Source of the DNA: Synergistales bacterium
GTDB lineage: Bacteria; Synergistota; Synergistia; Synergistales; JAFGMB01
Reading direction: 5' to 3'
Assembly: GCA_963666205.1 (NCBI GenBank)
Contig: OY762654.1
Coordinates: 2,496,001-2,560,000, forward strand
Length of the DNA stretch: 64,000 nt
Under the pieces are notes generated by a model. It ran no database searches, was not told where the DNA came from, and saw only the letters and a list, made by a program, of their open reading frames with translations. This document shows positions 39,992 to 57,463 of the stretch, one piece after another; position 1 is the first letter of the stretch, and each line of letters starts with the position of its first letter. Position numbers and translations under genes: made by a program.

Positions 39992-40007
39992 TAAAAAGGA
40001 GATATAT

Positions 40008-41250: not shown

Positions 41251-42303
41251 GTGTGTCCCATTCGCTCTTTCTGTGAAATAACAACATTGGGGAAACTGGC
41301 TGCCAGAGTCGGAGGAAAGGTCCATGGCCCCGAAGATGAAATTGTATCAGGAATCAGTATACCCTCAGAGTCAGGGAAAGATGTTATCTGTGTAATCTGG
41401 TCCCAGAAGGAACTTGGTAAAGTAGCTGATGAATCTCTTATAGTTGCTCCTGAGGGGTTCTTTTCTCCATCCAGAAAAGGTATAGAAATAAAAGATCCAA
41501 GGGCTGCCCTGGCGGAGTTGCTGTCAATGGTAATACATAGTCCGGTTTCAGCTTTCGGAATACATCCCTCCGCGGTGGTTTCTGAAAGCGCAAAGGTGGA
41601 CCCTTCTGTTTTGATAGGTCCCAATTGTATTGTTGCCGAAAACGCTGTTATAGCTTCCGGTGCTGTCCTGGAAGGGAATGTATATATAGGCAGGGACGTC
41701 CATGTGGGAGCGGATTCTTTTATCGAGCCGGGAGCGGTTATATATCATGAAACTTTTATTGGGAAAAAGGCAGTAATTCATGCCAATAGTGTCATAGGTG
41801 TTGACGGGTTTGGTTTTATTCCATCATCTGATGGCGCGGAGCCGATAAAGATACCGCAGGTCGGAAGGGTCATCATAGGTGATAATGTAGAGATCGGTGC
41901 ATGTTGTACAGTGGACAGAGGAACTCTGGGTGACACTGTTATCCGTGATGGGGTTAAAACAGATGATCATGTTCATATTGGCCATAATACTGATATCGGC
42001 AGGGGTTGCCTCCTGGTTGCCCAGACAGGGATCGCTGGAAGTTCTGTTCTTGAAGACAGCGTGATTATGGCAGCTCGAAGTGGCACAGCGGATCACGTAA
42101 GGGTTGGGAAAGGAGCCCAGGTAGCCGCTATGGGAGGAGCCATAAAGGATGTTCCCCCTGGTGCCGTGGTTTCCGGTTTTCCTGCCCGTGATCACAGAAA
42201 GAACTATAGAACTCTGGCCATGATCCAGAAACTTCCAGAGCTTTTCCAGAAAGTGAAGACCCTGGAAAAGATCCTTTCCAGTCTGGATAAGGGAGATAAA
42301 TAA
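41251..42303 (+). CDS. lpxD: UDP-3-O-acylglucosamine N-acyltransferase
   Basis: Hexapeptide repeats, GVDGFGF, KIPQVG, VDRGTLGDT, HIGHN. Confidence 0.95.
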   Translation: MCPIRSFCEITTLGKLAARVGGKVHGPEDEIVSGISIPSESGKDVICVIWSQKELGKVADESLIVAPEGFFSPSRKGIEIKDPRAALAELLSMVIHSPVSAFGIHPSAVVSESAKVDPSVLIGPNCIVAENAVIASGAVLEGNVYIGRDVHVGADSFIEPGAVIYHETFIGKKAVIHANSVIGVDGFGFIPSSDGAEPIKIPQVGRVIIGDNVEIGACCTVDRGTLGDTVIRDGVKTDDHVHIGHNTDIGRGCLLVAQTGIAGSSVLEDSVIMAARSGTADHVRVGKGAQVAAMGGAIKDVPPGAVVSGFPARDHRKNYRTLAMIQKLPELFQKVKTLEKILSSLDKGDK

Positions 42304-42307
42304 TATA

Positions 42308-43147
42308 TTGAGATATCGAAAAACTTTAAAAGAAGCGGTCTCTTTCGAAGGAACAGGTCTTCATACAGGCGAAAGATCCCGGATAATCCTTAAGCCGAGC
42401 AGTGGAAATGGTTATTCATTCAATTTTATGAAATCCACGTTTTCCCTTGCAGATGCATCTTTCAGCGGTGATGGCCGGGGTACGGTACTGCATTTTCCAG
42501 GAGGAATAAGACTTGGAACAGTGGAGCACCTTCTTGCTGCTCTGAGGGGGTGCGGAGTCGATGATGTGGAGATCTGTGTTGAAAAGGGAATCGAGGTCCC
42601 TTCCCTTGATGGAAGCGCAAGATCTTATGCTGATCTCCTCAACAGGACTGGTTTTCTTGAAAAAAAAGAATACGTAAAGCCTTTAACCATTGCTTTTCCT
42701 GTGGGGGTGGATCTGGAAGAACAGGGAAGCTCTATCTTTGCCTTTCCTTCTTCATCTTTCAGGATAACCTATGTTATCGACTATGAAAACAGGATGATCG
42801 GAACCCAGATGAAAAGTCTGGAAGTTTCTCCAGAGACTTTCCTGAATGAGATCGCATCTGCACGGACCTTTGCCCTGGAGGAAGATATGGATAGTCTGAG
42901 ACAAATGGGTCTTGCCAGGGGAGGCGATCTTTCCAATGCTATCCTTGTGAAGGAAGAGGAAGTCCTGACAGAGGGAGGACTCAGGTTCAAAGATGAGTTT
43001 GTAAGACATAAAATCCTGGATCTTATCGGAGATCTTGCCATTCTTGATGGGCCACCATGTTTCCATGTAGTTTGTTTCAGGGGAGGACATTCACTGCACC
43101 TAAGGCTGGCCCGGAAACTTATCAGAAAAAAGGGAATAAACCTATAA
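42308..43147 (+). CDS. lpxC: UDP-3-O-acyl-GlcNAc deacetylase
   Basis: GTGLHTG, TVEHLLAA, LDGSA, EIASARTF, RHKILDLIGDL, GH. Confidence 0.96.
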   Translation: MRYRKTLKEAVSFEGTGLHTGERSRIILKPSSGNGYSFNFMKSTFSLADASFSGDGRGTVLHFPGGIRLGTVEHLLAALRGCGVDDVEICVEKGIEVPSLDGSARSYADLLNRTGFLEKKEYVKPLTIAFPVGVDLEEQGSSIFAFPSSSFRITYVIDYENRMIGTQMKSLEVSPETFLNEIASARTFALEEDMDSLRQMGLARGGDLSNAILVKEEEVLTEGGLRFKDEFVRHKILDLIGDLAILDGPPCFHVVCFRGGHSLHLRLARKLIRKKGINL

Positions 43148-43162
43148 AAGGAGTGACCTTAG

Positions 43163-43606
43163 ATGATACTGGATATACACAAGATCCTTGATTCTTTACC
43201 TCATAGATATCCCCTGCTGCTTGTGGACAGGATAATCGATTTTGAGAATGGACGGATCAAAGGATTGAAGAATGTAACAATAAATGAACCCTTCTTCCAG
43301 GGACATTTCCCGGGAGAACCTGTAATGCCGGGAGTTCTTATCCTTGAAGCTATGGGACAGGTAGCTGCAATGATGATAGTTGCGGATCCCGAGCTTCAAG
43401 GTATGGTTACATATCTCACTGGTATAGAAAAGGCAAGATTCCGAAGACCTGTAAGACCTGGTGACCAGCTTATAACAACGGCAGAAATAACAAAACGCAG
43501 AGGCCGGGTCGGGAAAGTTCATGCTTTTTCAACTGTTGATGGAGATCTGGCAGCTGAAGGTGACTACAGTTTCCTTGTGGCCAGAAGCCTGAACCTGGAG
43601 GAGTAG
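43163..43606 (+). CDS. fabZ: 3-hydroxyacyl-ACP dehydratase
   Basis: LPHRYPLLLVDRI, FFQGHFP..PVMPGVLILEAMGQ. Confidence 0.96.
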   Translation: MILDIHKILDSLPHRYPLLLVDRIIDFENGRIKGLKNVTINEPFFQGHFPGEPVMPGVLILEAMGQVAAMMIVADPELQGMVTYLTGIEKARFRRPVRPGDQLITTAEITKRRGRVGKVHAFSTVDGDLAAEGDYSFLVARSLNLEE

Positions 43607-43611
43607 AAGAT

Positions 43612-44424
43612 ATGACAGTGGAAATTCATCCGACCGCTTTAGTATCGTCCAAAGCAGAGATTGAAGATGGGGTGAGGATAGGACCTTACTGTGTTGTCTC
43701 GGATAAAGTAAGAATAGGAGCCGGCACAGAACTGAAAGCCTTTGTTTCTGTCCATGACTATGTCGAAATGGGACATGGCTGTAATGTCTATGAAAATACT
43801 GTTCTTGGAGGGGATCCTCAGGATAGGGATTTCAAGGGAGAAGAAACATGGGTCCTTATCGGAAACAATAATATTATAAGAGAAAATGTAACCATAAACC
43901 GTTCTACAGGAGAGGGTTCCTGTACCTCTGTAGGGAATGACTGTTTTCTCATGGAAGGAGTTCATCTCGCCCACAATGTCAAAATAGGCAATAACGTAAC
44001 CATTGCCAACAAAGCTGGTTTTGCGGGACATTCATCAGTTGGAGATAATGCTGTTATAGGCGGGATAGCCGGGGTTCATCAGTTTGTCAGGATAGGAAGG
44101 CTCTGCATGGTTGGCGGCCTCTCCAAAATAGTGAAGGATATACCTCCTTTTATGCTTGTAGATGGACACCCTGGCAGGATCTTCGGAATCAACAGGGTTG
44201 GCCTCAAAAGAGCCGGTTATGATGCTTCCCATCGATCGGCTGTCAAATCTTTATATAAATCACTCTACCATTCGGGACTTCCATTCAGAAAGGCTATTTC
44301 CGAAATAGAGGAAACAATGTCAGGTAATCCCTTTACGGATGAAATCCTTGATTTTCTCAGGGGTTCAAAAAGAGGCGTGGAATTCTGGCCCAAAGTTATT
44401 ATTAACTCATCAGGTAATGATTAA
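43612..44424 (+). CDS. lpxA: UDP-GlcNAc O-acyltransferase
   Basis: IHPTALV, GDPQD, IRENVTI, HLAHN, GVHQF, KDIPPF, INRVGLKR. Confidence 0.96.
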   Translation: MTVEIHPTALVSSKAEIEDGVRIGPYCVVSDKVRIGAGTELKAFVSVHDYVEMGHGCNVYENTVLGGDPQDRDFKGEETWVLIGNNNIIRENVTINRSTGEGSCTSVGNDCFLMEGVHLAHNVKIGNNVTIANKAGFAGHSSVGDNAVIGGIAGVHQFVRIGRLCMVGGLSKIVKDIPPFMLVDGHPGRIFGINRVGLKRAGYDASHRSAVKSLYKSLYHSGLPFRKAISEIEETMSGNPFTDEILDFLRGSKRGVEFWPKVIINSSGND

Positions 44425-44914
44425 ACTCCTTGTACTCGACGTAGATGGCACCCTCACTGACGGTGGAGTCTACATCGACGGTAGTGGCATCGAATTTAAA
44501 AGGTTCGACATTCAGGATGGAATGGGTATTGTCCTTCTGCAGAAGAGTTCTGTCCATGTAGCTATAATAAGCGGCCGTTACTCAAAGGCTACGCAACTGA
44601 GAGCAAAAGAACTTGGTATTTCTTTGCTCTATAACGGTGTTCTGAATAAACTGAGAGTTCTTCAAGATCTTGCGGAGGAATTGGATGTTTCAAGAGAGGA
44701 AATAGCCTTCGCAGGTGATGACGTAAATGATATAGACTGCATGGAATGGGCAGGTCTGGGCTTTGCTGTGGCAAATGCCAGGCCTGCTGTAAAAAAGACA
44801 GCGGACCATGTTACTTCCTCTCAGGGTGGTCATGGTGCTGTTCGTGAGATCTGCGAAAAAATACTTTATATGAACAGCCTAGCCTTTCAGGAGAATATCA
44901 ATGAGAATGTCTAA
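44417..44914 (+). CDS. kdsC: Kdo-8-phosphate phosphatase (HAD)
   Basis: LDVDGTLTDG, FDIQDG, GDDVND, GGHGAVRE. Start ATG 44417. Confidence 0.93.
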   Translation: MIKLLVLDVDGTLTDGGVYIDGSGIEFKRFDIQDGMGIVLLQKSSVHVAIISGRYSKATQLRAKELGISLLYNGVLNKLRVLQDLAEELDVSREEIAFAGDDVNDIDCMEWAGLGFAVANARPAVKKTADHVTSSQGGHGAVREICEKILYMNSLAFQENINENV

Positions 44915-46004
44915 AAGTATGATTCTGGACAGATACATAATAAAAGAACTTTCTGGATCATTCTTTTTTGGTGTTATGTCATTCACTGTTATCATGGTCG
45001 CTGGTGACCTGCTTTTTGATATCGCAGACCTGATAATCGAAAAGGGTGTATCATTCTGGGTCGTAGCCAGGCTTTTCACTTATAAACTGCCTTCAGTGAT
45101 AACGCTTACCCTGCCGATGGCATGTCTCCTTTCAACCTTGCTTAGTTTTGGGAGACTCTCGGCCAATAGTGAACTCATAGCCCTTAAAGCATCAGGAGTC
45201 GCCTTTCAGAGGATAATAAGACCTGTCATCATTTCCGCTTTTTTCATTGGCGCAGTTGCCCTTATATTCAATGAGACCGTCGTTCCAATGGCAAACAGGG
45301 CGGCCGATAACATTATGCGCTATGAAGTCGCAAAAGAAAGGCCATCCCTACTTAAGGAAAGGATCTTTCTACGCGAAGAAAGTGGAGGCCGCCTTAACCG
45401 TGTTATTTACATCAACATGCTTAAACCTCGCCTTGGAATAATGAGTGAGATCCTTATTCAGGAATTTGAAAAGGGACATTTGAGAAAGATAACCACTGCG
45501 GAAAAGGGCATTTGGAAAAATGGAGAATGGACTTTGGAGCAGGGAGAAGTGTTCGATGTCACATCTGATGGTAAGGTTAATATTCTCTACAAGTTCAAAA
45601 ATCAGAAGATATCACTGGAGCTTAATCCAGGTCAGGTGGCCAGCGCATCCCGTGATCCGGAAGATATGGGTCTCTTTGAGCTTTCTGCCCATATAAATCT
45701 TCTCAAGTCCCAGGGAGCGAATCTCCTGCCTTTAAAAGTGATGTATCATCTGAGATTAGCAATTCCATGGGCTACACTTGTTCTGGCCCTTGTCGGGGCG
45801 GCACTGGGTGTAAGGCCGCAACGGACAGGACCTGGTGTCGGTTTTGGGTTGAGCATCATTATTGTTTTTGCTTACTATGTTGTTATGTCCATCTGCCGGG
45901 CACTTGGTCAGGCAGGTGGCCTTCCTCCATTTCTGGCTGCCTGGCTTCCCAATATTATCTTTTTGTTTTTTGGGACTTTTCTTGCCCGAAGGGTAAATTA
46001 TTAA
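44901..46004 (+). CDS. LptF/LptG family LPS export permease
   Basis: ILDRYIIKE, LPMACLLSTL, SELIALKASG, AAWLPN. Confidence 0.9.
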   Translation: MRMSKSMILDRYIIKELSGSFFFGVMSFTVIMVAGDLLFDIADLIIEKGVSFWVVARLFTYKLPSVITLTLPMACLLSTLLSFGRLSANSELIALKASGVAFQRIIRPVIISAFFIGAVALIFNETVVPMANRAADNIMRYEVAKERPSLLKERIFLREESGGRLNRVIYINMLKPRLGIMSEILIQEFEKGHLRKITTAEKGIWKNGEWTLEQGEVFDVTSDGKVNILYKFKNQKISLELNPGQVASASRDPEDMGLFELSAHINLLKSQGANLLPLKVMYHLRLAIPWATLVLALVGAALGVRPQRTGPGVGFGLSIIIVFAYYVVMSICRALGQAGGLPPFLAAWLPNIIFLFFGTFLARRVNY

Positions 46005-46032
46005 AATATTATTATTTAAAAGGTAGGAAAAA

Positions 46033-46830
46033 ATGAAAGAAAAGATCGCTTTGATTGCCGGTGAGGGAAGCCTGCCCCTGGAAATATGCAGGAGTCTGAC
46101 ATCCAGGTCCTTTAATTGTGTCGTTTATTCCCTGAGAGCAGATAATTCGGAGTTCAAAACAATGGACATCGAAATACGTTCTTTGCAGAGTCTGGATTTT
46201 GCGGGAATTATAGGCGATATCAAGCACAGCGGTATTGTTTCTGTAATTCTTGCGGGGATGGTTCCCAAAAGCCTGATCTACAAACCTGAGGTACTGGATG
46301 ATCTTGGCAGGGAAATGCTCTCTAGACTTAAGATCAAAGATGACCACAGCTTATTGGGAATGATAATTGCTACCTTTGAGGATCTGGGCCTCCATGTTAT
46401 TCCATACAGGGATCTTATTCCGGACCTTTTGGCTAATCCAGGCAATATCGGTGGAAGAGTACCCACCCCTGCGGAGCAAGAAGATATCCATTATGGAGTC
46501 GAAATAATGAAGAAACTGCTTCCTCTTTCCTTTGGTCAGACCGTTGTTATTTCTGATGGATCGGTGGTTGCAGTCGAGGCCATGGAAGGGACAGATGAAA
46601 CCTTGAAAAGGGCAGAAACTCTTAGTCGGGGTGGGGTTGTGGTCAAGATGATGAAGCCTGGACAGGACGAAAGGTTTGATCTTCCAACGGTTGGGATAAC
46701 AACTCTTGAAAATATGAAAAGATCAGGGTTGACCTGTCTTGCTGTTGAGGCGGATAAAACAATCATCCTTGATAAGGAAAGCTTCTGTGAGCTTGCCTCG
46801 ATGTTCGATATTGCAGTAGTAGGTATTTAG
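46033..46830 (+). CDS. lpxI: UDP-2,3-diacylglucosamine hydrolase
   Basis: LIAGEGSLP, GQTVV, AVEAMEGTD, KPGQDERFDLPTVG. Confidence 0.93.
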   Translation: MKEKIALIAGEGSLPLEICRSLTSRSFNCVVYSLRADNSEFKTMDIEIRSLQSLDFAGIIGDIKHSGIVSVILAGMVPKSLIYKPEVLDDLGREMLSRLKIKDDHSLLGMIIATFEDLGLHVIPYRDLIPDLLANPGNIGGRVPTPAEQEDIHYGVEIMKKLLPLSFGQTVVISDGSVVAVEAMEGTDETLKRAETLSRGGVVVKMMKPGQDERFDLPTVGITTLENMKRSGLTCLAVEADKTIILDKESFCELASMFDIAVVGI

Positions 46831-46832
46831 AA

Positions 46833-47951
46833 TTGTCTATATTTTTGAGCTGTGGAGAAGTTTCAGGTGATAATTACCTCGCCCTTCTTATCAAGTCTCT
46901 TAAAGAAAATGGTTTCAATGGGACCTTATGGGGAATGCTTGGTCCACAGTCAGAAAGAGCAGGCGGTGTAAGTGTCTGGAGCTATCATGAACTTCACCTT
47001 ATGGGGATCCTGGAAGTTCTACCGTCAATTCCACGATTGATCAGATTGAAAAATGTCATGGTCAGGAAAATTCTTTCAGATTTGCCAGAGACAGTAGTTG
47101 TGGTTGATAGTCCCGATTTTCACCTTCCCCTGGTTAAATCTCTGCGTCGGGCAGGTTTTTCGGGTGCTATTGTGTATCTTGTTCCACCCACTGTTTGGGC
47201 CTGGAGGGAAGGCCGATGTTCGATTCTGGCTGAGCACTGTGATCTCTGCCTCCCCCTTCTTTCCTTTGAGAACGACTTTCTTCTCGACAAAGGAGTTAAA
47301 AGTAAATGGAAAGGCCATCCCATGCTTGAAAGCCTTAAGGACTTTACTCCTCCCACAGGAATAGTAAAAGAGGAAGAGAGAGCTGCCACAATAACTCTTC
47401 TCCCGGGGAGCAGGCCTGGCGAAATCAAAAAGCATCTCCCGGTTCTATTGGAATGTGCTTCCAGGATCAGAGACCTCTCGCTGAAACCTGTTTTTTCAAT
47501 ATCTTCAACTTTACCCGAGGATCTTAAAAGAGATATGAAGAAAAAAATCAGTCCATGGGATTTCTATGAGGGATCAGGCAGGGATATTATGTCTCTTTCC
47601 AGGGCTGTTATCGGAGTCAGCGGAACCGTGTCTGTCGAATCAATGCTCCTCGACAGATTCATGATCGTGATTTACAGAGGAGCCTCTTTTTCATGGTTTA
47701 TTTATAAACTCCTTATCTCTGCTCCCTATATTTCGATTCCGAATATAATGGCTGATGAAATGATCTTTCCGGAATACCTTCAACAGGATGTTAATGTGGA
47801 TAATATTATCGAAAGCCTGAAGAAGTATGTTTTTGATGAAAGTTATCGTGTCCGGGTTCATGAAATACTCGGTGATCTCAAGGATAGAATGGGCGCAGAA
47901 GGGGCTTCTGATTTCTGGGCCCGCTCCATACTTGAGATATCAGGACAATGA
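46833..47951 (+). CDS. lpxB: Lipid-A-disaccharide synthase
   Basis: CGEVSGD, VDSPDFH, PTVWAWR, GHP, LLPGSRPGE, SGTVSVE, ISIPN. Confidence 0.93.
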   Translation: MSIFLSCGEVSGDNYLALLIKSLKENGFNGTLWGMLGPQSERAGGVSVWSYHELHLMGILEVLPSIPRLIRLKNVMVRKILSDLPETVVVVDSPDFHLPLVKSLRRAGFSGAIVYLVPPTVWAWREGRCSILAEHCDLCLPLLSFENDFLLDKGVKSKWKGHPMLESLKDFTPPTGIVKEEERAATITLLPGSRPGEIKKHLPVLLECASRIRDLSLKPVFSISSTLPEDLKRDMKKKISPWDFYEGSGRDIMSLSRAVIGVSGTVSVESMLLDRFMIVIYRGASFSWFIYKLLISAPYISIPNIMADEMIFPEYLQQDVNVDNIIESLKKYVFDESYRVRVHEILGDLKDRMGAEGASDFWARSILEISGQ

Positions 47952-49054
47952 AAAAAGTTATCATCCTGTCAAATGGTCCGGGTGAAGTGTGGGGCTGGGC
48001 TCGACCTCTCGCTGCTGAATTGAAGAGAAGAGGGTACTATGTGATCCTGTGGCTTTTACCCTGTCAGTTTTCCAGTGGTAATGAAAAAGCGCTTTGCAGA
48101 TTTATTGAATCGGATGAGATCCATGGACCTTGCGGAACTATTAAAACCCTTCACGATTTCAGGAGAGCAAAAGGCGATCTCGTTATCCAGCTGGGTGGAG
48201 ATCTGCTTTTTGGAAGGGGCCTGGCCGGTTTTTTAAATAAACCTTTAATATGTTATGCTTATGGACCTAAAAAAGGGATGGATAAATGTAAAGTACTTCT
48301 TTCCGCTTTTGAATGGATGGCAGAGAGTATCAACCGAAAAACAGGATCTCCAGTTGAACTTGTTGGAGATCTTACTCTGGATGCCCTGAAAATGGATTCG
48401 GGAGAGAACCCCTGGGAGACTGGAAAAGGAACCAGGATTGCCCTTTTTCCAGGAAGCAGACCCAAAATCAGAGAAAAAGCCAGATTCTTTCTCGCAGAAA
48501 TGGTAGTGGAACTTCGGAGAGAATTGCCGGATCTCCAGGTAATAACTCCATTTCTCCCCGATGTAACTGAAGATGAAAAAAAGCAATGGGAAGATATGGG
48601 TCTTGCTCCTACAATTTCAGGATCAAGGGCTGTCCTTGAAAGTGCCCATATGGCTGTAACTCAACCAGGAACGAACAATTTTGAAATAATGCATATGGGA
48701 ACGCCTGCAATTGTTGCTTTGCCCTTTGATTTTCTGGAACTTGTTCCCCTCTCGGGAATAAAGGGTATGGTTGTATCTTTACCCGGGGTAGGTCCCTGGG
48801 TAAAGAGGAAATGGCTTCGAAGGATGGACAGGTACACAGGCTATCTTAGCTGGCCAAACCGGATGGCGGGTAAAGAGATCATGACAGAAATACGGGGAGA
48901 CCTATCCCCTTATGATCTGAGTCACAGTATCCTTTCCCTGCTTTCTGAAAGGCAGAAACTGCAAAAGCAGAGGCAGGAACTGTTGTCTATGAGCCGCAGG
49001 TCCCCCTTAAAAGCCTCTCATAATATATGTGAAGTAGTTGAAAGGTTGGTTTAA
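47948..49054 (+). CDS. Divergent LpxB-like GT-B glycosyltransferase
   Basis: SNGPGE N-terminal motif, LGGDL, VGDL, LFPGSR, QPGTN, SWPN. Confidence 0.75.
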   Translation: MKKVIILSNGPGEVWGWARPLAAELKRRGYYVILWLLPCQFSSGNEKALCRFIESDEIHGPCGTIKTLHDFRRAKGDLVIQLGGDLLFGRGLAGFLNKPLICYAYGPKKGMDKCKVLLSAFEWMAESINRKTGSPVELVGDLTLDALKMDSGENPWETGKGTRIALFPGSRPKIREKARFFLAEMVVELRRELPDLQVITPFLPDVTEDEKKQWEDMGLAPTISGSRAVLESAHMAVTQPGTNNFEIMHMGTPAIVALPFDFLELVPLSGIKGMVVSLPGVGPWVKRKWLRRMDRYTGYLSWPNRMAGKEIMTEIRGDLSPYDLSHSILSLLSERQKLQKQRQELLSMSRRSPLKASHNICEVVERLV

Positions 49055-49059
49055 CTGTA

Positions 49060-50814
49060 ATGGCTTCTCGAAAAAGTGTCTATCTAAGACTTTTAAAATA
49101 TGTAAGACCCTATATGAATCGTGTTTTTTCGGCGCTTGGGTGTATGATACTTGCCTCAGTGTTTACTGTTGTTCCTCCCTGGCTTCTGAAAAATGTTGTT
49201 GATGATGTGCTTATAGAAAAAAACATGGTAATTCTGAATGTTCTGGCTATTGGGCTTGTTTTCCTTTTTGTTGGGAAGGCAGTTGCGAGTTATGGTCACC
49301 AGTACCTTATGAATTGGGTAGGACAGCACGTGGTGATGGATCTCAGGTTAAGTCTTTATCAGCATATGCAGAAATTATCAATGAGATATATTTATGGCAA
49401 ACGGGTCGGAGAGCTCATGTCGAGGATAACCAATGACGTAATGATACTCCAGACCATGGTAACAACGGTTGTGGTTGACCTTGTTGTTCAGGGAGTTACC
49501 TTTCTTGGAATGTTGACTTTCATGATCTATATCAACTGGAAACTGACTTTATTGACCTTCTGTGTTCTTCCCCTTGCTGCAATGCTTCTAAACAGGGCCT
49601 CCAGTAAACTGCGTGTTGTGGGCCATGATATCCAGGAGCAGTTGGCAATGCTTTCTGCCACCGCCCAGGAGGCACTTTCCGCAATAAGAATAGTCCTTTC
49701 CTTTGCAACTGAAGAGGAGGAGGCCCTCAGATTTAAAAAACAGAATTTACTTAATTTCCGTGCTCTGATGAAAAGAACACAGTTGCAGGCTGCTCTTTCC
49801 GGGATAATAGAGGTTGTCCTTATCGGATCCCTTGCCCTGATCCTCTGGGTCGGAGGTCGTGAGGTAGTCCGGGGGAAATCAACTCCGGGGGAACTTATCG
49901 CCTTTCTGAGTTACCTTGGTTTCCTGGTTCAGCCTATAAGGGTTTATACAAGAGTGATAAGTAATATGCAGCATGGGCTTGCGGCCTGTGACCGGATATT
50001 CAGCCTTCTTGATACTCCCGTCGAAGTCCTCCCACCTGTAGATCCGATCTATCTTTCTTCTATGAAGGGCAGCATCTCTTTTGAGAATGTGTGGTTCTGT
50101 TATGAACCTGGTCAATGGATTCTTAAGGGGGTAACGCTTGAAGCTCTTCCTGGAGAAAATATTGCAATTGTGGGGCCAACAGGAGTAGGTAAATCAACTC
50201 TTATGGATTTCATTCCCAGGTTTTATGATCCACAGAAGGGTAAGATCAAAATTGATGGACATGACGTTCGTTCTCTGGATCTGAAAACACTCCGAAAACA
50301 GATCGGCATAGTACCCCAGGATCCTGTCCTGATGAAGGGATCTATAGCCTTTAATATTTCTTATGGCCTTGATGGAATAGACATGGTAGCTGTTCAGAAT
50401 GCAGCTGAAATAGCAGGAATAGATGATTTTATAGGTAGTCTCCCTCAAGGTTACGACACAGAGATCGGAGAGAGGGGAGTTACATTGAGTGGGGGACAGC
50501 GTCAGAGGATAGCCATAGCAAGGGCAATAATTCGTGACCCACGGATACTTATCATGGATGAGGCAACTTCTTCACTGGATATGGCTGTTGAGAGGAAGAT
50601 CCAGGAGGCCATGCGAAAAGCAACAGAAGGAAGGACATCTTTTATAATCGCCCATCGGCTGTCTACGATCAAGGATGCAGATAGAATAATAGTAATAGAT
50701 GAAGGCAAAGTTGTCGAAGAAGGAAGCCATGATGAATTGATAAAGACCGACGGATTATATAACCATCTATACAGACTTCAGTTTGGCGAAAATGATGAAA
50801 AATCTTGTTCGTGA
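49060..50814 (+). CDS. msbA: Lipid A flippase MsbA-type ABC exporter
   Basis: TM domain plus GPTGVGKS, LSGGQRQR, DEATS; sits in the lipid A cluster. Confidence 0.88.
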   Translation: MASRKSVYLRLLKYVRPYMNRVFSALGCMILASVFTVVPPWLLKNVVDDVLIEKNMVILNVLAIGLVFLFVGKAVASYGHQYLMNWVGQHVVMDLRLSLYQHMQKLSMRYIYGKRVGELMSRITNDVMILQTMVTTVVVDLVVQGVTFLGMLTFMIYINWKLTLLTFCVLPLAAMLLNRASSKLRVVGHDIQEQLAMLSATAQEALSAIRIVLSFATEEEEALRFKKQNLLNFRALMKRTQLQAALSGIIEVVLIGSLALILWVGGREVVRGKSTPGELIAFLSYLGFLVQPIRVYTRVISNMQHGLAACDRIFSLLDTPVEVLPPVDPIYLSSMKGSISFENVWFCYEPGQWILKGVTLEALPGENIAIVGPTGVGKSTLMDFIPRFYDPQKGKIKIDGHDVRSLDLKTLRKQIGIVPQDPVLMKGSIAFNISYGLDGIDMVAVQNAAEIAGIDDFIGSLPQGYDTEIGERGVTLSGGQRQRIAIARAIIRDPRILIMDEATSSLDMAVERKIQEAMRKATEGRTSFIIAHRLSTIKDADRIIVIDEGKVVEEGSHDELIKTDGLYNHLYRLQFGENDEKSCS

Positions 50815-53047
50815 TTATCTTGAATTTGCAAGAGGTGAAAAAAAAATCAGTCTCTGGTCTATCCTTATACCTCTGGGGCTTCTGACAAGATTTATTGTCA
50901 GGATAAGGACCTTTCTTTATGATCATGGGATTCTTCCCAGTTTTGAGACACCTATTCCGGTGATAAGTGTTGGTAACATTACTTTTGGAGGAACGAACAA
51001 GACTCCCTTTGTTGAAATGCTTGCGACAAACCTGCAAAGATCCGGTTTGAGAGTTGGAATTGTAAGCAGGGGGTATGGCGGAAATACTTTGGCCCCGGTT
51101 CTTCTGAAAGGGAATAATGCTTCAAGGGATCTGGTCGGGGATGAGCCCCTGCTTCTTTCTTCCAGGCTTGAAAATATACCGATAGCTGTCTCAAAGGACA
51201 GGATAAAAGATGTGGATCTATTGCGCCGGGAAGGTGTCCATTTAATACTGGCTGATGATGCCTTTCAGCATCGCCGCCTGGGAAGGGATGTTGACATAGT
51301 GCTTGTGGATGCCCTGTGTCCCTTTGGTAACGGGCAGTTCTCTCCGTCGGGGATACTTCGGGAGATCCCGGATTCCGTGAAAAGGGCGGATATAGTGGTT
51401 ATAACCAAATCCGACCAGGTGGAGAAGTGTGTTCTTGAAGATCTGAAAAGAAAACTTCTTAAGTGGGTCCCTTCCGATAAACTATTCTGTTCAAAACTGG
51501 AGATCACTTCCTGGTCCATATGGGATGATTCATGGAAAAATCTGAACAGGACAAACCCTGAGGGACTGAAGGTCGTGGCATTTTCTGCCATAGGGAGTCC
51601 TGACAGCTTTATCCGTTCACTTAAAGATAATGGCCTGGTGGTCTTACAGGAAAATCTATTTAAGGATCATCACAGGTTTTCCATTAGTGAGATAATGGAA
51701 ATGTCTGAATCTCTTGATTCTCTTAACGGGGATCTTCTTGCATGTACTGAAAAGGATATCTTTAACCTGCCTGAAGACCTTGGTGGGAAATACCGTTTTC
51801 TTGTTCCCAGAATATCTACCGTTATAGATAATGAAACACAATTTTATAATGTCATATCCGAATGTTTACGTCCCCGGATAGTAGTAACGTCAAATGGTTT
51901 TGGGGAAGATTCAATAGGGGCTCTTCTTGCTGCCAGGATACAGAAAAGATTCCCTCTGGCCAGGGTTTCCGGTTTTCCCATAGTAGGGCTTGGTGAACAT
52001 TACTCCAGGAAAAATATCGAGGTTATATCATGTCCTCATATCTCCCCCACGGGTGGAGTGATAAAGTATAGTGCTAGAGCCTTTTTTCAGGATATCAGGG
52101 CTGGACTTGTAAAAAATATCATAAGCCAGATTAAGGCATGGAAGATTCTCAGATGGAAGGTCCGTACTGTCGTATGTGTTGGTGACGTGTATCTTCTGTT
52201 GCAGACCCTGATCGGACAGGGTCAGGTTCCATTGCTTGTTGCGACTGCTAAAACGGTGTATCTGACAGGTCACTGGAAACTTGAGCAGTTTATACTGAAA
52301 CATCGTTGCAGACGGGTCTGGACCCGTGATGCAGAAACGGCACAGGAGCTTTTAAATTCTGGAGCTGATGCGGTCTTTAACGGTAATCCGATCATGGATC
52401 TTATAGAGGACAGCAGTGAAGGGAATGACCCCTGGCCGGCTGGTTCCTCCAGGAGGATATTGCTTCTCCCCGGGAGCAGGGCCAGAGCTTACGGGGATGT
52501 GGGGCTCCTGCTTGATGCGGCTGTTATCCTTAATCGTAGATTTTCCTCCAGTTTTGTCGCTGTCGTTGCCCCCACTCTGGATGTTAAAAAGATCCTCTCC
52601 ATGAATCCAGGGTGGAACAAACTTGAGTCTGAACCCTGTGTCATCGAAAGAGAGGGTGTGAAGGTCCTTCTTTACAAGGGATCACTTGTTGATGCAGCCC
52701 GTAATGCGGAGATCCTTCTAGGTCTTGGGGGTACTGCAAACCAGGTCTGTGCCGGATTGGGAGTTCCAGTTGTTTCTATATTGGAAAAGGGAAAGCTTGT
52801 TCAGAAAAAACTTCTTGGAGATTCAGAACTGCTTGTAAAAGCAGCCCCGGATGCCCTTGCAGAGGCAGCAGTAAGGATCCTTTCAGAACCTGAACTTGGA
52901 TCATGGATGTCAAGGGCTGGCAAAGTTCGGCTTGGTTGTCCGGGAGCACTGGAAAATGTGGTTGAATATCTGGATTCCAACCTGGGGTGGAATCTCAGGT
53001 CTCAGGTTTATTCGCAGCTTTGCTCTTTTTTCAGTTTAAGGAACTGA
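50783..53047 (+). CDS. lpxK: Tetraacyldisaccharide 4'-kinase fused to a C-terminal LpxB-related GT-B domain
   Basis: N-terminus has SVGNITFGGTNKTP, SRGYG, GDEP, DDAFQH, DHH, TEKD. C-terminal ~390 aa has SNGFGED, VGDV, GNPIMD, LLPGSR, GTANQ. Confidence 0.88.
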   Translation: MAKMMKNLVRDYLEFARGEKKISLWSILIPLGLLTRFIVRIRTFLYDHGILPSFETPIPVISVGNITFGGTNKTPFVEMLATNLQRSGLRVGIVSRGYGGNTLAPVLLKGNNASRDLVGDEPLLLSSRLENIPIAVSKDRIKDVDLLRREGVHLILADDAFQHRRLGRDVDIVLVDALCPFGNGQFSPSGILREIPDSVKRADIVVITKSDQVEKCVLEDLKRKLLKWVPSDKLFCSKLEITSWSIWDDSWKNLNRTNPEGLKVVAFSAIGSPDSFIRSLKDNGLVVLQENLFKDHHRFSISEIMEMSESLDSLNGDLLACTEKDIFNLPEDLGGKYRFLVPRISTVIDNETQFYNVISECLRPRIVVTSNGFGEDSIGALLAARIQKRFPLARVSGFPIVGLGEHYSRKNIEVISCPHISPTGGVIKYSARAFFQDIRAGLVKNIISQIKAWKILRWKVRTVVCVGDVYLLLQTLIGQGQVPLLVATAKTVYLTGHWKLEQFILKHRCRRVWTRDAETAQELLNSGADAVFNGNPIMDLIEDSSEGNDPWPAGSSRRILLLPGSRARAYGDVGLLLDAAVILNRRFSSSFVAVVAPTLDVKKILSMNPGWNKLESEPCVIEREGVKVLLYKGSLVDAARNAEILLGLGGTANQVCAGLGVPVVSILEKGKLVQKKLLGDSELLVKAAPDALAEAAVRILSEPELGSWMSRAGKVRLGCPGALENVVEYLDSNLGWNLRSQVYSQLCSFFSLRN

Positions 53048-53100
53048 TCTTTATAAATGATTAATATCAGAATTCAATCTGGTTGTGGAGATGGTGTTTG

Positions 53101-53961
53101 ATGACAAATGTTATTGATATCGGTGATTTCAAGATAGGTTCAGGACCATTGACAATTATAGCGGGCCCATGTTCTCTGGAAAATTTTGAAATATCCCTTG
53201 AAATCGCTTCAACGGTAAGGGATATCTGCTGTGGGGTAGGCATGAACTTCATTTTCAAGGCTTCCTTTGACAAGGCCAACAGGACATCCATAGACAGTTA
53301 CAGGGGCCCGGGACTTGAAAAGGGGTTGGAATGGCTCGGCGATATCCGGTCCAGACTGAATGTACCCGTTCTTACAGATATTCATGAACCATGGCAGGCC
53401 GCCCCTGTTTCAGAAATCGTGGATGTTCTTCAGATACCAGCTTTTCTGTGCAGACAGACTGATCTCCTTGTATCAGCCTCAAAAACGGGGAAACCTCTGA
53501 ATATCAAAAAAGCTCAATTCCTTTCACCACAGGATATGACTTCTGTGGTGAAAAAATGTACTGAAAGCGGCAACAGTAAGATAATGCTTTGTGAAAGGGG
53601 AACAACCCTGGGCTATAATCAACTCGTGGTTGACATGAGGTCACTCTCCCTGATGAGAGAACTCGGATGTCCCGTGGTATTCGATGCTACCCATAGTGTG
53701 CAGATGCCGGGCGGCAAAGGTTCAAGTTCAGGTGGTGACAGAAGATTTGTTCTTCCATTGGCAAGGGCAGCTGTAGCTATAGGTATCGATGCCCTGTTCA
53801 TTGAAACCCATCCAATGCCTGAAAAGGCCCTGAGTGATGGCCCTAACATGGTGCCTCTTGAAAAACTCGAGTATCTTTTGAGACAGATCAGAGACATAGA
53901 TGAGTTGGTCAAAAGAAATATAGGCATCAGTGACCTCAATTGGACTGGAGGAAAAGAGTAA
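53101..53961 (+). CDS. kdsA: Kdo-8-phosphate synthase
   Basis: [44 protein letters not shown]. Confidence 0.96.
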
Positions 53962-54968
53962 TGGTCTGCCTTCCCAGGGAAAGAGCCTGTAGAGAGCTCG
54001 AAGATGCAGATCTTCTGAATATTGGCAGGTCAGTCCTTGAAATGGAAGCCCGGGAGATAACAAGGGCTTCTCACAGGCTTGGCAAAGAACTTGTCGAAGC
54101 CGCAAGGCTTATCCAGGGGTGCAGGGGGAGGCTTGTAGTTGTAGGAATGGGCAAATCCGGTCTTATTGGCAGAAAGATCGCTGCAACTCTGGCTTCACTT
54201 GGAACCCCTTCTTTTTTCCTTCATGCTGCAGAAGGAGCTCATGGTGATCTCGGCATGGTATGCCGGGAAGACATTGGCCTTTTTATCAGTCATAGTGGGA
54301 AAACACAGGAGCTTCTCAAACTTCTTCCTTTTTTCAGCAGATTGGGTGCTCCTATAATTGCAATTTCTGGCGATAGCCTTTCTCCATTGGCAAAGAATGC
54401 TGATATCTACCTCGATTCCGGGATAGAAAGAGAGGCTGATCCTTTGAATCTGGCCCCGACTTCAAGCACAACTGTTCAACTGGCCATAGGTGACGCCCTT
54501 GCTGGCATGGTCACTGAGATGAAAAATCTTCAGAGAGAGGATTTTGCTCTTTTTCATCCAGCAGGTAGCCTGGGAAAGATGCTCCTCCTTCGAGTACAGG
54601 ATCTTATGGGTAAAGGAGAGCATCTTCCGGTTGTAAGACTGGATGCTACAGTGGGAGAGGCTCTTTTCGAGATAACGAGCAAAGGATATGGCGCAACAGT
54701 CGTTGTTGACGAAAAGGGAGATCTTGCCGGTATTTTCACGGATGGTGATCTGAGACGCCTCATGGAAAAAGATGGTTGTACATGTATGGAAGAAAAGATA
54801 GAGCTTGTTATGACAAGATCTCCAAAGGTCATAGAACCCCGGAAACTTGCAGCTGAAGCTGTCAGAATTATGGAACAGAATGAAATATCTGTGCTGATCG
54901 TAATAGAGGGGAATCAACCTGCAGGGATAATACACCTTCATGAATTGTTGAAAGCAGGGGTGGCATAA
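53961..54968 (+). CDS. kdsD: Arabinose-5-phosphate isomerase (SIS plus CBS domains)
   Basis: GMGKSG, HGDLG, EADPLNLAPTSST, FHPAGSLG, GIFTDGDLRR. Confidence 0.95.
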   Translation: MVCLPRERACRELEDADLLNIGRSVLEMEAREITRASHRLGKELVEAARLIQGCRGRLVVVGMGKSGLIGRKIAATLASLGTPSFFLHAAEGAHGDLGMVCREDIGLFISHSGKTQELLKLLPFFSRLGAPIIAISGDSLSPLAKNADIYLDSGIEREADPLNLAPTSSTTVQLAIGDALAGMVTEMKNLQREDFALFHPAGSLGKMLLLRVQDLMGKGEHLPVVRLDATVGEALFEITSKGYGATVVVDEKGDLAGIFTDGDLRRLMEKDGCTCMEEKIELVMTRSPKVIEPRKLAAEAVRIMEQNEISVLIVIEGNQPAGIIHLHELLKAGVA

Positions 54969-54972
54969 ACTG

Positions 54973-56226
54973 TTGATAACTATTTACAGGCTCCTGATAT
55001 CATTCCTTTATTTTCTGACATATCCCTATCTCGCAAAAAAGTACAGGGATGGATTAAATGAACGTAGGGGTCTATACAGCAACGATTTTAAAAGTTTCGT
55101 AAAGGGAAAACGTCCCCTCTGGGTTCATGCCGTATCAGTAGGAGAGGTTCAGTCTGCATCTTCCTTTATACATGAATTCATAAATGGTGATATCTCCAAT
55201 CCGGTAGTACTTTCCACTACTACCCACACAGGAAGGGAAATGTCAGAAAAGCTTCTCTCTATTAAGATCAGCCGTCACTTTTATTATCCATGGGATATAC
55301 CCTGGATCGTAAAGAGAGCGGTTGATACAATAGAACCAGTAGCATATGTTGTAATGGAAACAGAAATATGGCCCAATATCCTTTATGAAATGAAGCGTCA
55401 GGGAATACCTTCGTTTCTTGTAAATGGAAGATTTTCTGATAATTCCTTCGAGAAACGGAAGGGTAAGGCTAATTTCTGGAGGGATGTTCTCTCCCTCTTC
55501 ACACTGATAATGGTGAGGGAGCAGGAGGATTGCAATAAACTCAGGATGCTGGGAGTCCCTCCGGAAAAGATAAAACTCACAGGTGACTGCAAGGTCGATG
55601 CGCTCATCAATAGGGGCAGAGAAATTGATCTTACCAATGTTCGTAAGATAGTGGGAACAGGCAAACCTCTTTTTCTGGCAGGAAGTACCCATACTGGAGA
55701 AGATGAGGTTGTCCTTGAGGCTTTCGGAATGATCCGTCGGAATTCTCCCGAGGCGAAACTTGTTCTTGTCCCCCGTCACCCGGAGAGATCTGAGAGGGTT
55801 GCCGAACTTGCCGGGAAGTATGGACAGACAACTCTGTTGTCGGAGAATAGCGGTCCTGGATGGGATATTATGGTTATAGATCAAATAGGGCACTTATTCG
55901 AATTTTACGGAGTTGCCGATGCGGCCTTTGTAGGGGGCAGCATCGTTCCAAAGGGGGGCCAGAACCTTATGGAACCTGCCCTTTTTGGAGTTCCAGTGAC
56001 CCATGGCCCTCATATGGAGGATTTCCGGGAAGCATCCTCAAGATTGGGGAGTCTCGGAGTTGCCAGAGTTGTCAGAACGGCAGAAGATCTGTCTGCAAAA
56101 TGGGTTGAAGACATAGCTGAATCCAGAAAAGAAGCAGTCAGGGAGAATTGCAGAACCTTTTTTGAGGAACACAGCGGGGCTTCCTCCAGGTCCTGGCAGT
56201 TGATAAAAGATCATATTTCCTTATAG
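54973..56226 (+). CDS. waaA: Kdo transferase
   Basis: WVHAVSVGE, METEIWPN, AGSTHTGE, VPRHPER, VGGS..GGQNLMEPA. Confidence 0.95.
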   Translation: MITIYRLLISFLYFLTYPYLAKKYRDGLNERRGLYSNDFKSFVKGKRPLWVHAVSVGEVQSASSFIHEFINGDISNPVVLSTTTHTGREMSEKLLSIKISRHFYYPWDIPWIVKRAVDTIEPVAYVVMETEIWPNILYEMKRQGIPSFLVNGRFSDNSFEKRKGKANFWRDVLSLFTLIMVREQEDCNKLRMLGVPPEKIKLTGDCKVDALINRGREIDLTNVRKIVGTGKPLFLAGSTHTGEDEVVLEAFGMIRRNSPEAKLVLVPRHPERSERVAELAGKYGQTTLLSENSGPGWDIMVIDQIGHLFEFYGVADAAFVGGSIVPKGGQNLMEPALFGVPVTHGPHMEDFREASSRLGSLGVARVVRTAEDLSAKWVEDIAESRKEAVRENCRTFFEEHSGASSRSWQLIKDHISL

Positions 56227-56240
56227 GAAGGGGAATTATT

Positions 56241-57463
56241 ATGCAGATCAACTATGAACTTTTAAATGTTTTTTATGAGGGTCTGGATGAAAGATCCCGT
56301 AATAGTCTTGATGAAGCGGTAGCAAAGATCGTCAGGGTAAAGGAAAAGGGCGGCAAGGTAATGGTGGCGACCGAAGCGGACCGAATATTCATGAAGGAGT
56401 TACTACCCTTATTGCCGAGCTCATGGATAAAGGTATAGTTGATAGTGTTACCACCAGTTCTGCCGTGATAGGCCATGAAATGGCAGGTTCCCTCGACAGG
56501 GTCAAAATGGTTGATGCATCTGAGCTTGCTTTTGATGAAAAATTTATGCCCAGAGGGAATGTCTTTGAATTTACACAGCTTTCAGAAGATGAGATCAACG
56601 ACCTGAAAAAAGAGATTGTTCTTGACCTGGACCTACTGGAGAGGGGAAGCCGGATCGACGGTAATGTGATAATAAAGGCAGCAGGTAACATGGCCTATCC
56701 CATGGGCATGAGGACAGAAGCAGTCGCATCAGAAATACTCTCTATTGCCAGGACCTACGGTCTTCCCTTTGAAGAAGTGGCAGGATGGGGAGCAGATAAA
56801 AGATCAATGATAGGTGCAGGTTCCAGAAAAGGCATTCCTGTCCTTGTCAGCGTTCCACAGATGATAGGTTCAGGTAACGTAGGTCTTTCCATTGGAGACA
56901 GTATTCCTGTTTCACAGCGATGTATGCGCATTTCCCGTATGCTTGAGGAAGCAGATGTGATAATAGAATCTGCAGTGGCCCTAACCCAGGAGATACATGA
57001 TGGTCCTTTTGAATGTTATACGGGCCACGGTATATGGTCCTGGTGGAACGGTATCCATACTTACAGCCTTAAAGAGAAGTCTCTTATCCGGATCGATCTG
57101 GATGAAAACCTGAGAAAAGCTCAGGATGTTCAAAAAGAGAACAGTATGATACAGGAAGCCATAAACAAGGGTCTTCCCAAGACCAAGATATCCAGGATAC
57201 CCTTCCGAATGGAGATGTCCGCCTTTGCGAGGCATGAGGGGAGCATTCCCATAATCGGCGATATAGGTCAGGTCTGGCCCTTAATTGCTGTAAAAGTAGC
57301 GGAAGCTCTTAAGGTATCCCTTGATTTTATGAGTTATTCCCAGGAAACAGAGGATGGGAAAAGGATGAGGGAATGGATAGTAAGAGAGATTAAACCCTTT
57401 GACAGACAGCTACTCAGGCAAAGAGCTGAGGAATATAAGCTCGCTATTTCCAATAGAGGATAA
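56241..57463 (+). pseudogene. Deoxyhypusine-synthase-like (DHS fold) protein, split by an apparent 1-nt deletion near 56373
   Basis: Inserting one G (ACC G[G]A AGC GGA CCG AAT) fuses ORFs 56241-56438 and 56423-57463 into 407 aa reading KVMVATGSGPNIHEGVTTLIAELMDKGIVDSVTTSSAVIGHE. May be a sequencing error. Confidence 0.7.

Follow-up and report, generated by a model that had tools for sequence, protein, structure and literature searches.

A 64,000-nucleotide stretch of the genome of a Synergistales bacterium (assembly GCA_963666205.1, contig OY762654.1, forward-strand positions 2,496,001 to 2,560,000; analyzed in full and referred to below as the window) harbors a lipid A operon in which two orphan domains of the GT-B fold accompany the canonical lipid-A-disaccharide synthase LpxB. 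One is a divergent LpxB paralog, for which we coin the name B2, and the other, of the TIGR03492 type, is fused in frame to the tetraacyldisaccharide 4'-kinase LpxK. Both families keep conserved motifs, are co-inherited, and recur in lipid A gene clusters of several phyla; outside Synergistota they occur where LpxK and WaaA were not found, absence meaning throughout that a protein was not found with the models used in the assemblies searched. [quoted passage not shown] The pair probably marks a way of finishing lipid A that has not been described before. The features concerned are the following (aa, amino acids; ORF, open reading frame).

46833-47951, + strand: lpxB, canonical lipid-A-disaccharide synthase (predicted); 372 aa; PF02684, TIGR00215
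47948-49054, + strand: B2, SNGPGE-type divergent paralog of LpxB; 368 aa; without a match to a dedicated Pfam or NCBIfam model
49060-50814, + strand: msbA-like ABC exporter gene, between the two orphan domains; 584 aa; TIGR02203, ABC_membrane, ABC_tran
50783-51874, + strand: LpxK domain, tetraacyldisaccharide 4'-kinase; aa 1-364 of the 754-aa ORF; PF02606, TIGR00682
51875-53047, + strand: TIGR03492-type GT-B domain, SNG[FHY]GED type, in-frame fusion to LpxK; aa 365-754; TIGR03492

Organization of the locus

The preliminary description of this DNA had placed four ORFs here, and all four lie on the + strand exactly where it had put them. They are part of a single tightly packed + strand lipid A/Kdo operon (41251-56226) with the order lpxD, lpxC, fabZ, lpxA, kdsC, a permease gene of the lptF/G type, lpxI, lpxB, B2, msbA, lpxK::TIGR03492, kdsA, kdsD and waaA. 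The B2 ATG overlaps the lpxB TGA (ATGA), 5 nt separate the B2 stop from the msbA start, and the end of msbA is overlapped by the start of the lpxK ORF, a 754-aa ORF (50783-53047, +) that encodes LpxK and the TIGR03492-type domain in a single reading frame. The rest of the source genome encodes two LpxL-type acyltransferases and a third GT9 protein; the canonical lipid A pathway looks complete, and both orphan domains therefore look to be extra.

The ORF at 46833-47951 is the predicted canonical LpxB. It matches PF02684 with 244.2 bits (cut-off 22.6) over aa 3-338 and TIGR00215 with 187.6 bits, marginally below the cut-off of 190.25; it carries the motifs GEVSGD, DSPDF, LLPGSR, SGTVSVE and IPN, and it clusters with the LpxB rows at support 99 in a quick tree. 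The LpxK domain scores 268.9 bits against PF02606 over aa 26-359 and 205.8 bits against TIGR00682 (cut-off 91.95), and it aligns with Aquifex aeolicus LpxK (4EHW, E 4.8e-30) across the GDEP, DDxFQH (here DDAFQH) and DH motifs. Its Walker A motif (near aa 64-75) reads GGTNKTP, with Asn replacing the Gly before Lys of the A. aeolicus GGSGKTS; this variant is present in all 12 pattern-matching loci of the phylum (11 relatives and the window's own genome) among 13 scanned, locus L003 having no pattern match. The MsbA-like protein (49060-50814) reaches 526 bits against TIGR02203 (MsbA_lipidA), under the cut-off of 602, and its Pfam domains match well, indicating a divergent version; an MsbA-like gene occupies the same position in five Synergistaceae loci, in G077, a class-level relative, and in G002, from another lineage of the phylum.

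Conservation of the LpxK fusion in Synergistota

With the 754-aa fusion protein as the query (P0003), a match was found in 116 of 121 Synergistota genomes. In 103 of these a single uninterrupted match starts no later than residue 42 and extends at least to residue 731, and nine further genomes span the domain junction with a match that is cut or split; the LpxK part alone was matched in two genomes, at contig ends, and the C-terminal domain alone in another two (G077 and G006). The query found no match in G053, G117, G120, G003 and G008. The closest named relatives come from Synergistaceae/Synergistota, and among the named matches the LpxK fusion was seen in Synergistota only. A fusion peculiar to this assembly, an outcome that the preliminary description had considered, can be set aside given these counts.

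Contigs from other data carry the same arrangement. One from a public run, possibly the source of this DNA, covers the whole stretch with 3 differences, and another, from a separate study and labelled as a different organism, covers 47558-53047 with 89 differences and no gaps. The junction at 51875 is crossed without gaps by a contig from marine-sediment DNA (51389-51936) and by a metatranscriptome contig (51106-52100), the latter being no proof of transcription, as an RNA library may hold DNA. Because matches are phylum-wide and independent contigs bridge the junction, the fusion is real and old and is no assembly artefact.

In G077 (locus L110, 6579-12391) the order lpxB-B2-msbA-TIGR03492 is kept with the last gene unfused, and the fusion query found no LpxK part anywhere in the G077 or G006 genomes. 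The fused form is present in G002. A possible LpxK remnant in the N-terminal extension (~135 aa) of the unfused G077 protein was considered and dropped, the extension having no similarity to LpxK.

Co-inheritance of B2 and TIGR03492

The joint occurrence of the two families was counted in four genome samples, with the following results.

Synergistota (n = 121): both 114; B2 only 2; TIGR03492 only 2; neither 3
Phylum of an Eremiobacteraeota-labelled metagenome-assembled genome (MAG) (n = 61): both 59; B2 only 0; TIGR03492 only 2; neither 0
Phylum of Synechococcus RCC307 (n = 61): both 40; B2 only 0; TIGR03492 only 0; neither 21
Order of a Halanaerobiales-labelled MAG (n = 41): both 8; B2 only 1; TIGR03492 only 0; neither 32
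Total, four samples (n = 284): both 221; B2 only 3; TIGR03492 only 4; neither 56

In the Synergistota row B2 and P0003 were each matched in 116 of the 121 genomes, P0003 including the LpxK part. The cyanobacterial sample has both families in the identical 40 of 61 genomes, which bears out the statement in the preliminary description that SNGHGED- and SNGPGE-type proteins occur in cyanobacteria.

Two side observations concern these samples. The 21 cyanobacterial-sample genomes without B2 and TIGR03492 are all small (1.6-2.5 Mb); a guess that they were Prochlorococcus with TIGR03492 alone was ruled out, TIGR03492 not being found in them either. Adjacent type-II reaction-center genes are present in 4 of the 61 genomes of the Eremiobacteraeota-labelled phylum.

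Distribution relative to LpxK and WaaA

Among the 41 Halanaerobiales genomes, LpxK was found in 28 and the WaaA N-domain in 28, the union being 30. None of these 30 carries B2 or TIGR03492, none of the nine genomes with B2 and/or TIGR03492 carries LpxK or WaaA, and two genomes have none of the four proteins. LpxB was still found in three of four pair-bearing Halanaerobiales genomes tested. LpxK was found in none of the 61 genomes of the Eremiobacterota sample, with no PF02606 match in the five genomes searched with that model, and in none of five genomes from elsewhere (two Synechococcus, Spirulina, Maritalea and a Halanaerobiales MAG). WaaA was likewise found in none of five (two Synechococcus, Spirulina, Maritalea and Eremiobacterota G181), nor in G121. 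Synechococcus elongatus, included as a control, has TIGR03492 and a match to LpxB, and no match to LpxK or WaaA. Passages of Opiyo et al. (2010, PMC3087551) describe cyanobacteria as having only lpxA, lpxC, lpxD and lpxB and a lipopolysaccharide (LPS) without Kdo, heptose and phosphate. Outside Synergistota the pair goes with genomes that yielded no LpxK or WaaA, a pattern that speaks more for an alternative late pathway than for an added decoration.

Gene context in other phyla

In all six Eremiobacterota loci fetched the order is lpxC, fabZ, a GFO/MocA oxidoreductase gene, lpxA, lpxB, B2, a PEMT/ICMT-like methyltransferase gene, a small ORF, a metallophosphoesterase gene and TIGR03492, and in the two loci checked for it (L022 and L026) the lpxB stop is abutted by the B2 start. 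Several Eremiobacterota genomes encode a single LpxB::B2 protein of ~815-845 aa adjoining TIGR03492; P0278 and P0358 are LpxB::B2 fusions, and in locus L016 one adjoins TIGR03492. Adjacency of lpxB and B2, or fusion of the two, with TIGR03492 nearby thus recurs in the lipid A clusters of a second phylum. The genes that separate B2 from TIGR03492 in L022 (7786-9594) and L026 (3079-4405) encode the PEMT/ICMT-like (LmtA-like) methyltransferase, the small ORF and a calcineurin-like metallophosphoesterase; the last may carry out a step of the LpxH/LpxG type.

The position around msbA, which the preliminary description had stressed, also has parallels: loci of Halanaerobiales and Armatimonadetes have an MsbA-like gene next to B2 or TIGR03492. 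Directly after msbA, three Halanaerobiales MAGs have TIGR03492 and a Wzy_C/WaaL-like gene, with B2 ~5 kb upstream beside an ArnT-like GT-C gene, two GT2 genes and GtrA, and an Armatimonadetes MAG has B2-msbA, followed further on by a WaaL-like gene, GT2 and TIGR03492. In Maritalea, TIGR03492 adjoins a DUF374 (LpxJ-family) gene.

Sequence and structure of the two families

B2 falls outside LpxB by family models, matching PF02684 only weakly (35.8 bits, aa 128-258 only) and TIGR00215 with 27.8 bits against the cut-off of 190.25, and its N-terminal (acceptor) domain has no match to LpxB models. The solved sequence nearest to its profile is nevertheless E. coli LpxB (5W8S, E 1.3e-16). Aligned to that protein, B2 keeps PGSR (equivalent to P198-R201), T242/E246 (equivalent to T277/E281) and P303-N304 (equivalent to N316); according to passages of the LpxB structure paper (PMC5785501), these LpxB residues bind pyrophosphate and ribose or belong to the C-terminal segment that is swapped in the dimer. 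The counterpart of the LpxB base D98 is probably D85 in QLGGD, an assignment that lies outside the aligned stretch. A 42-sequence cross-phyla alignment of B2 has N9, P11, G12, E13, P20, G44, E46, G83, G84, S170, R171, G241, N304 and E314 invariant, and the B2 of the window has them all. A B2 profile search returned 3434 cluster representatives among 1.84 billion at E <=0.001, of which 373 at <=1e-30. Some proteins join a B2-type domain to a GT2 domain, in either order (P0333, P0316), and one of them comes from an Eremiobacteraeota-labelled MAG. In one large family of the Synergistota (f2, e.g. G051 and G107) B2 is far more divergent (~170-190 bits, ORFs ~420 aa), resembling B2 from outside the phylum, and does not adjoin the lpxK fusion.

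The C-terminal domain of the fusion protein scores 209.9 bits against TIGR03492, just below the cut-off of 219.2, over aa 368-732 and model positions 2-394 of 396. It carries all residues invariant in the TIGR03492 family (E11, D104, E137, R151, D152, N171, D175, P199, S201, R202, G286 and T287 in domain numbering), the family as a whole keeping PGSR, GT and several invariant acidic residues. Every motif that the preliminary description had listed is present in the two proteins, SNGPGE, FPGSR, PGTN and WPN in B2 and SNGFGED, GNPIMD, LLPGSR and GGTA in the C-terminal domain.

AlphaFold2 models of B2 and of the TIGR03492 domain (predicted local distance difference test scores of 95.6 and 91.2, respectively) have the GT-B fold, and both match GT-B enzymes over their whole length with Z 21-26 in Foldseek and VIA searches. 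Foldseek ranked LpxB first for B2 and the epimerases first for the TIGR03492 domain, and in VIA alignments epimerases top the lists for both models at Z ~26 (25-26), and numerous ordinary GT-B transferases follow at Z 22-24; with so shallow a gradient of Z-scores the fold does not decide between an LpxB-like and an epimerase-like activity. By profile, the nearest solved relatives of TIGR03492 are 2-epimerases of uridine diphosphate (UDP)-N-acetylglucosamine (UDP-GlcNAc) (7VZA, E 9e-11), with LpxB at just E 0.29; PF02350 (Epimerase_2) matched neither orphan protein at E <=0.01. The earlier count of three LpxB-fold domains in the operon accordingly stands for the GT-B fold and fails by sequence, the third domain being nearest to UDP-GlcNAc 2-epimerases.

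Aligned with hhalign, B2 and TIGR03492 are related over their full length including the N-terminal NGxGE (97.2% probability, E 4e-11, 325 columns); they are sister families that keep the nucleotide-binding motifs of the LpxB type. In the quick maximum-likelihood tree (64 rows, unrooted, so that no order of events is claimed), LpxB and TIGR03492 each have support 99, the C-terminal domain of the window lies inside the TIGR03492 group (support 99), and B2 and LpxB are grouped at 84. Twenty-two of the 24 B2 rows form one group, and the other two (the L016 fusion and L028), which are badly cut rows, are long branches outside it. Within each family the sequences of each phylum cluster together, a pattern better matched by long vertical inheritance than by recent transfer. 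The TIGR03492 sequence of Maritalea is a long branch near the Eremiobacterota sequences.

Taxon leads from the ESM Atlas were Synergistota, Bacillota, Pseudomonadota and Margulisiibacteriota, and a profile search with the TIGR03492-family alignment gave no Deinococcus or cyanobacterial names among its matches. Databases list the two families solely as unnamed or "LpxB-related" proteins. A full-text literature search, which did not cover subscription journals, found no paper on either family, and passages of PMC5007114 and PMC13721041 mention neither. No earlier description was seen of an LpxK::TIGR03492 fusion across a phylum, of the joint inheritance of B2 and TIGR03492, or of their complementary distribution with LpxK and WaaA.

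Proposed role and alternative explanations

Natural fusions of LpxB to B2 and of LpxK to TIGR03492 show the pathway neighbors beside which the orphan domains work. The fusion and the lipid A clusters support the suggestion in the preliminary description that links the extra domains, members of old, uncharacterized families, to the lipid disaccharide/lipid IVA stage. We infer that both proteins are active transferases and that their acceptor is a lipid A intermediate; donor, position and order of steps would then be as follows. The pair would be co-inherited, nucleotide-sugar-dependent GT-B transferases, most likely using UDP-sugar donors, that act at the disaccharide/lipid IVA stage of lipid A synthesis, on the inner membrane's cytoplasmic face, after LpxB and before flipping by MsbA, with B2 translationally coupled to LpxB. 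Each enzyme would probably put one sugar on the lipid A backbone. In Eremiobacterota, cyanobacteria and part of the Halanaerobiales this late module would take the usual place of LpxK and WaaA, whereas Synergistota would run both routes, the TIGR03492 enzyme being joined to the membrane-anchored LpxK so that the two enzymes act on the same intermediate. An added sugar had been among the roles first suggested for the two domains; the tie of the families to the lipid A stage is supported, and the distribution favors an alternative late pathway over the decoration envisaged then.

A number of observations weigh against the proposed late module. Synergistota carry LpxK, WaaA, KdsA/C/D and heptosyltransferases alongside the pair, which therefore cannot simply substitute for LpxK and WaaA in this phylum, and phosphate or Kdo would stand in the way of a role at the 4' or 6' position; since Synergistota keep both, the products should be compatible with 4'-phosphate and Kdo, or two forms of lipid A should be made. 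In the alphaproteobacterium Maritalea porphyrae (L043/G184) TIGR03492 occurs without B2, with LpxB found and neither LpxK nor the WaaA N-domain found, and in the control Deinococcus radiodurans TIGR03492 scores above its cut-off with no match to models of LpxB (PF02684), LpxK and WaaA. TIGR03492 can thus do without B2 and, apparently, without lipid A as well, and is not strictly tied to the latter. Picocyanobacterial TIGR03492 has no lipid A neighbors within 8 kb, and among solved structures the TIGR03492 profile lies nearest to epimerases, not to transferases. As to sampling, the genomes of each sample are related, so the counts are not independent, and kinship is not given for three of the samples; WaaA was looked for in two Eremiobacterota genomes only, LpxK and WaaA were checked in individual cyanobacterial genomes only, and the eight to nine pair-bearing Halanaerobiales may be one clade reflecting one evolutionary event.

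A more specific version, which we put forward tentatively and regard as doubtful in its full detail, is a second, Kdo-independent finish of lipid A in which TIGR03492 would replace LpxK and B2 would replace WaaA. TIGR03492 would place a sugar, not phosphate, on the distal glucosamine, and B2 would perform an LpxB-like beta-1,6 transfer to the 6' hydroxyl, starting the core; Synergistota would be hybrids with both routes running and the two 4'-end enzymes fused. The lineages so covered would be cyanobacteria (the "four-enzyme" pathway), Eremiobacterota, part of the Halanaerobiales, and Maritalea.

It is unlikely, in our estimation, that the pair instead builds or extends a different membrane glycolipid exported by an MsbA-like pump, with the genes merely riding in envelope clusters. 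Such a role would account for TIGR03492 above cut-off in Deinococcus radiodurans without LpxB, LpxK or WaaA model matches, for the picocyanobacterial and Maritalea TIGR03492 genes outside lipid A clusters, for the fusion of B2 to GT2 domains, and for an MsbA-like protein in the window that stays under the MsbA equivalog cut-off (526 versus 602). It would not, however, explain why B2 is translationally coupled or fused to canonical LpxB, why TIGR03492 is fused to LpxK phylum-wide, why both genes lie among lpxC, lpxA, lpxB and lpxD in six of six Eremiobacterota loci, or why the complementarity is specifically with LpxK and WaaA. We also think it rather improbable that either or both proteins process nucleotide sugars as GT-B enzymes of an epimerase or hydrolase type, acting on UDP-2,3-diacylglucosamine or another UDP-sugar and giving LpxB, for example, an unphosphorylated acceptor or an unusual donor. 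UDP-GlcNAc 2-epimerases, the solved proteins closest to the TIGR03492 profile and the leaders of the fold lists for both models, argue for such an activity, and passages of PMC3087551 report cyanobacterial LPS without phosphate and no LpxH among the four enzymes, leaving the acceptor-making step open. Yet PF02350 has no match, the Z gradient is shallow, B2 is nearer in sequence to LpxB, a true transferase, and Synergistota already have LpxI while Eremiobacterota clusters have a metallophosphoesterase.

That the two proteins are non-catalytic or regulatory partners, pseudo-LpxB subunits that pair with LpxB and LpxK as a scaffold or for flux control, strikes us as quite improbable: E. coli LpxB is a dimer with swapped C-termini according to passages of PMC5785501, and the natural LpxB::B2 and LpxK::TIGR03492 fusions place the proteins together, but across phyla each of the two families keeps its nucleotide-binding and putative catalytic motifs without variation, and TIGR03492 occurs without LpxK, in Deinococcus without an LpxB match and in Maritalea without B2. 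Least credible, with chances that seem very slight, is that B2 is a second LpxB isozyme that yields the beta-1',6 disaccharide of LpxB but takes variant substrates, such as diamino sugars or different acyl chains. B2 is the closest relative of LpxB in the tree, and Eremiobacterota clusters encode a GnnA-like oxidoreductase; against this, the N-terminal acceptor domain of B2 has no LpxB-model match, B2 travels with TIGR03492 and not with gnn-like genes, and the cluster in the window has no such oxidoreductase.

How lipid A is completed and extended in cyanobacteria and other diderms without LpxK, WaaA and Kdo has been an open question since the finding that their LPS has no Kdo, heptose and phosphate, as given in passages of PMC3087551. 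The locus and the comparative pattern name two specific, conserved, co-inherited candidate genes that natural fusions tie to LpxB and LpxK, and the question is now directly testable in the tractable organisms Synechococcus and Synechocystis and in cultured Synergistota. The answer bears on outer-membrane evolution in Terrabacteria, and also on how the LPS of Synergistota from the gut and mouth is built and acts on the immune system.

Flanking genes

Upstream of the operon lie genes for a sigma factor and a BamA-like protein and a 435-aa ORF without family assignment, and downstream a 346-aa ORF without family assignment, an Elm1-like protein, two GT4 and two GT9 proteins and an epimerase. The two unassigned ORFs, at 39939-41246 (435 aa, in the gap between the BamA-like gene and lpxD) and 56423-57463 (346 aa, after waaA), matched no Pfam or NCBIfam model, and a sequence search of the PDB gave nothing meaningful for them. 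The Elm1-like protein (57625-58788; PF06258, 157.8 bits; no NCBIfam name matched) is encoded just past waaA in the LPS core cluster. LpxI (46033-46830) matches Pfam well and scores 118.8 against a cut-off of 400 for its NCBIfam equivalog, marking it as a divergent version.

Comparison with known systems

The orphan families belong to a known class, the GT-B enzymes of envelope glycolipid synthesis. Closest to B2 is E. coli LpxB (PF02684, TIGR00215; 5W8S/5W8X), presumably a member of CAZy family GT19, with which it shares the GT-B fold, the PGSR pyrophosphate loop, the T...E ribose/phosphate pair and the PN motif; where LpxB has the N-terminal GExSGD, B2 has NGPGE. The TIGR03492 domain is more distant from LpxB than B2 is. 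Its NCBIfam model, which the window domain matches over nearly its whole length, describes a "lipid-A-disaccharide synthase-related protein" and is a hypothetical equivalog of unknown function; elsewhere the family has standalone members, in genomes without LpxK found, whereas the domain in the window is fused to LpxK. The UDP-GlcNAc 2-epimerases (WecB/MnaA; 7VZA, 1F6D, 3OT5) are the best solved match to the TIGR03492 profile and the top fold match for both models, but the orphan pair differs from them in the absent PF02350 match and in its LpxB-like PGSR loop. WaaA is also a GT-B enzyme and has no sequence family in common with B2 and TIGR03492. LpxK, unlike the orphan pair, is a P-loop kinase and not a glycosyltransferase, and compared with the A. 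aeolicus enzyme (4EHW/4EHX) the N-terminal domain of the fusion is a regular LpxK, apart from the Asn in its Walker A motif.

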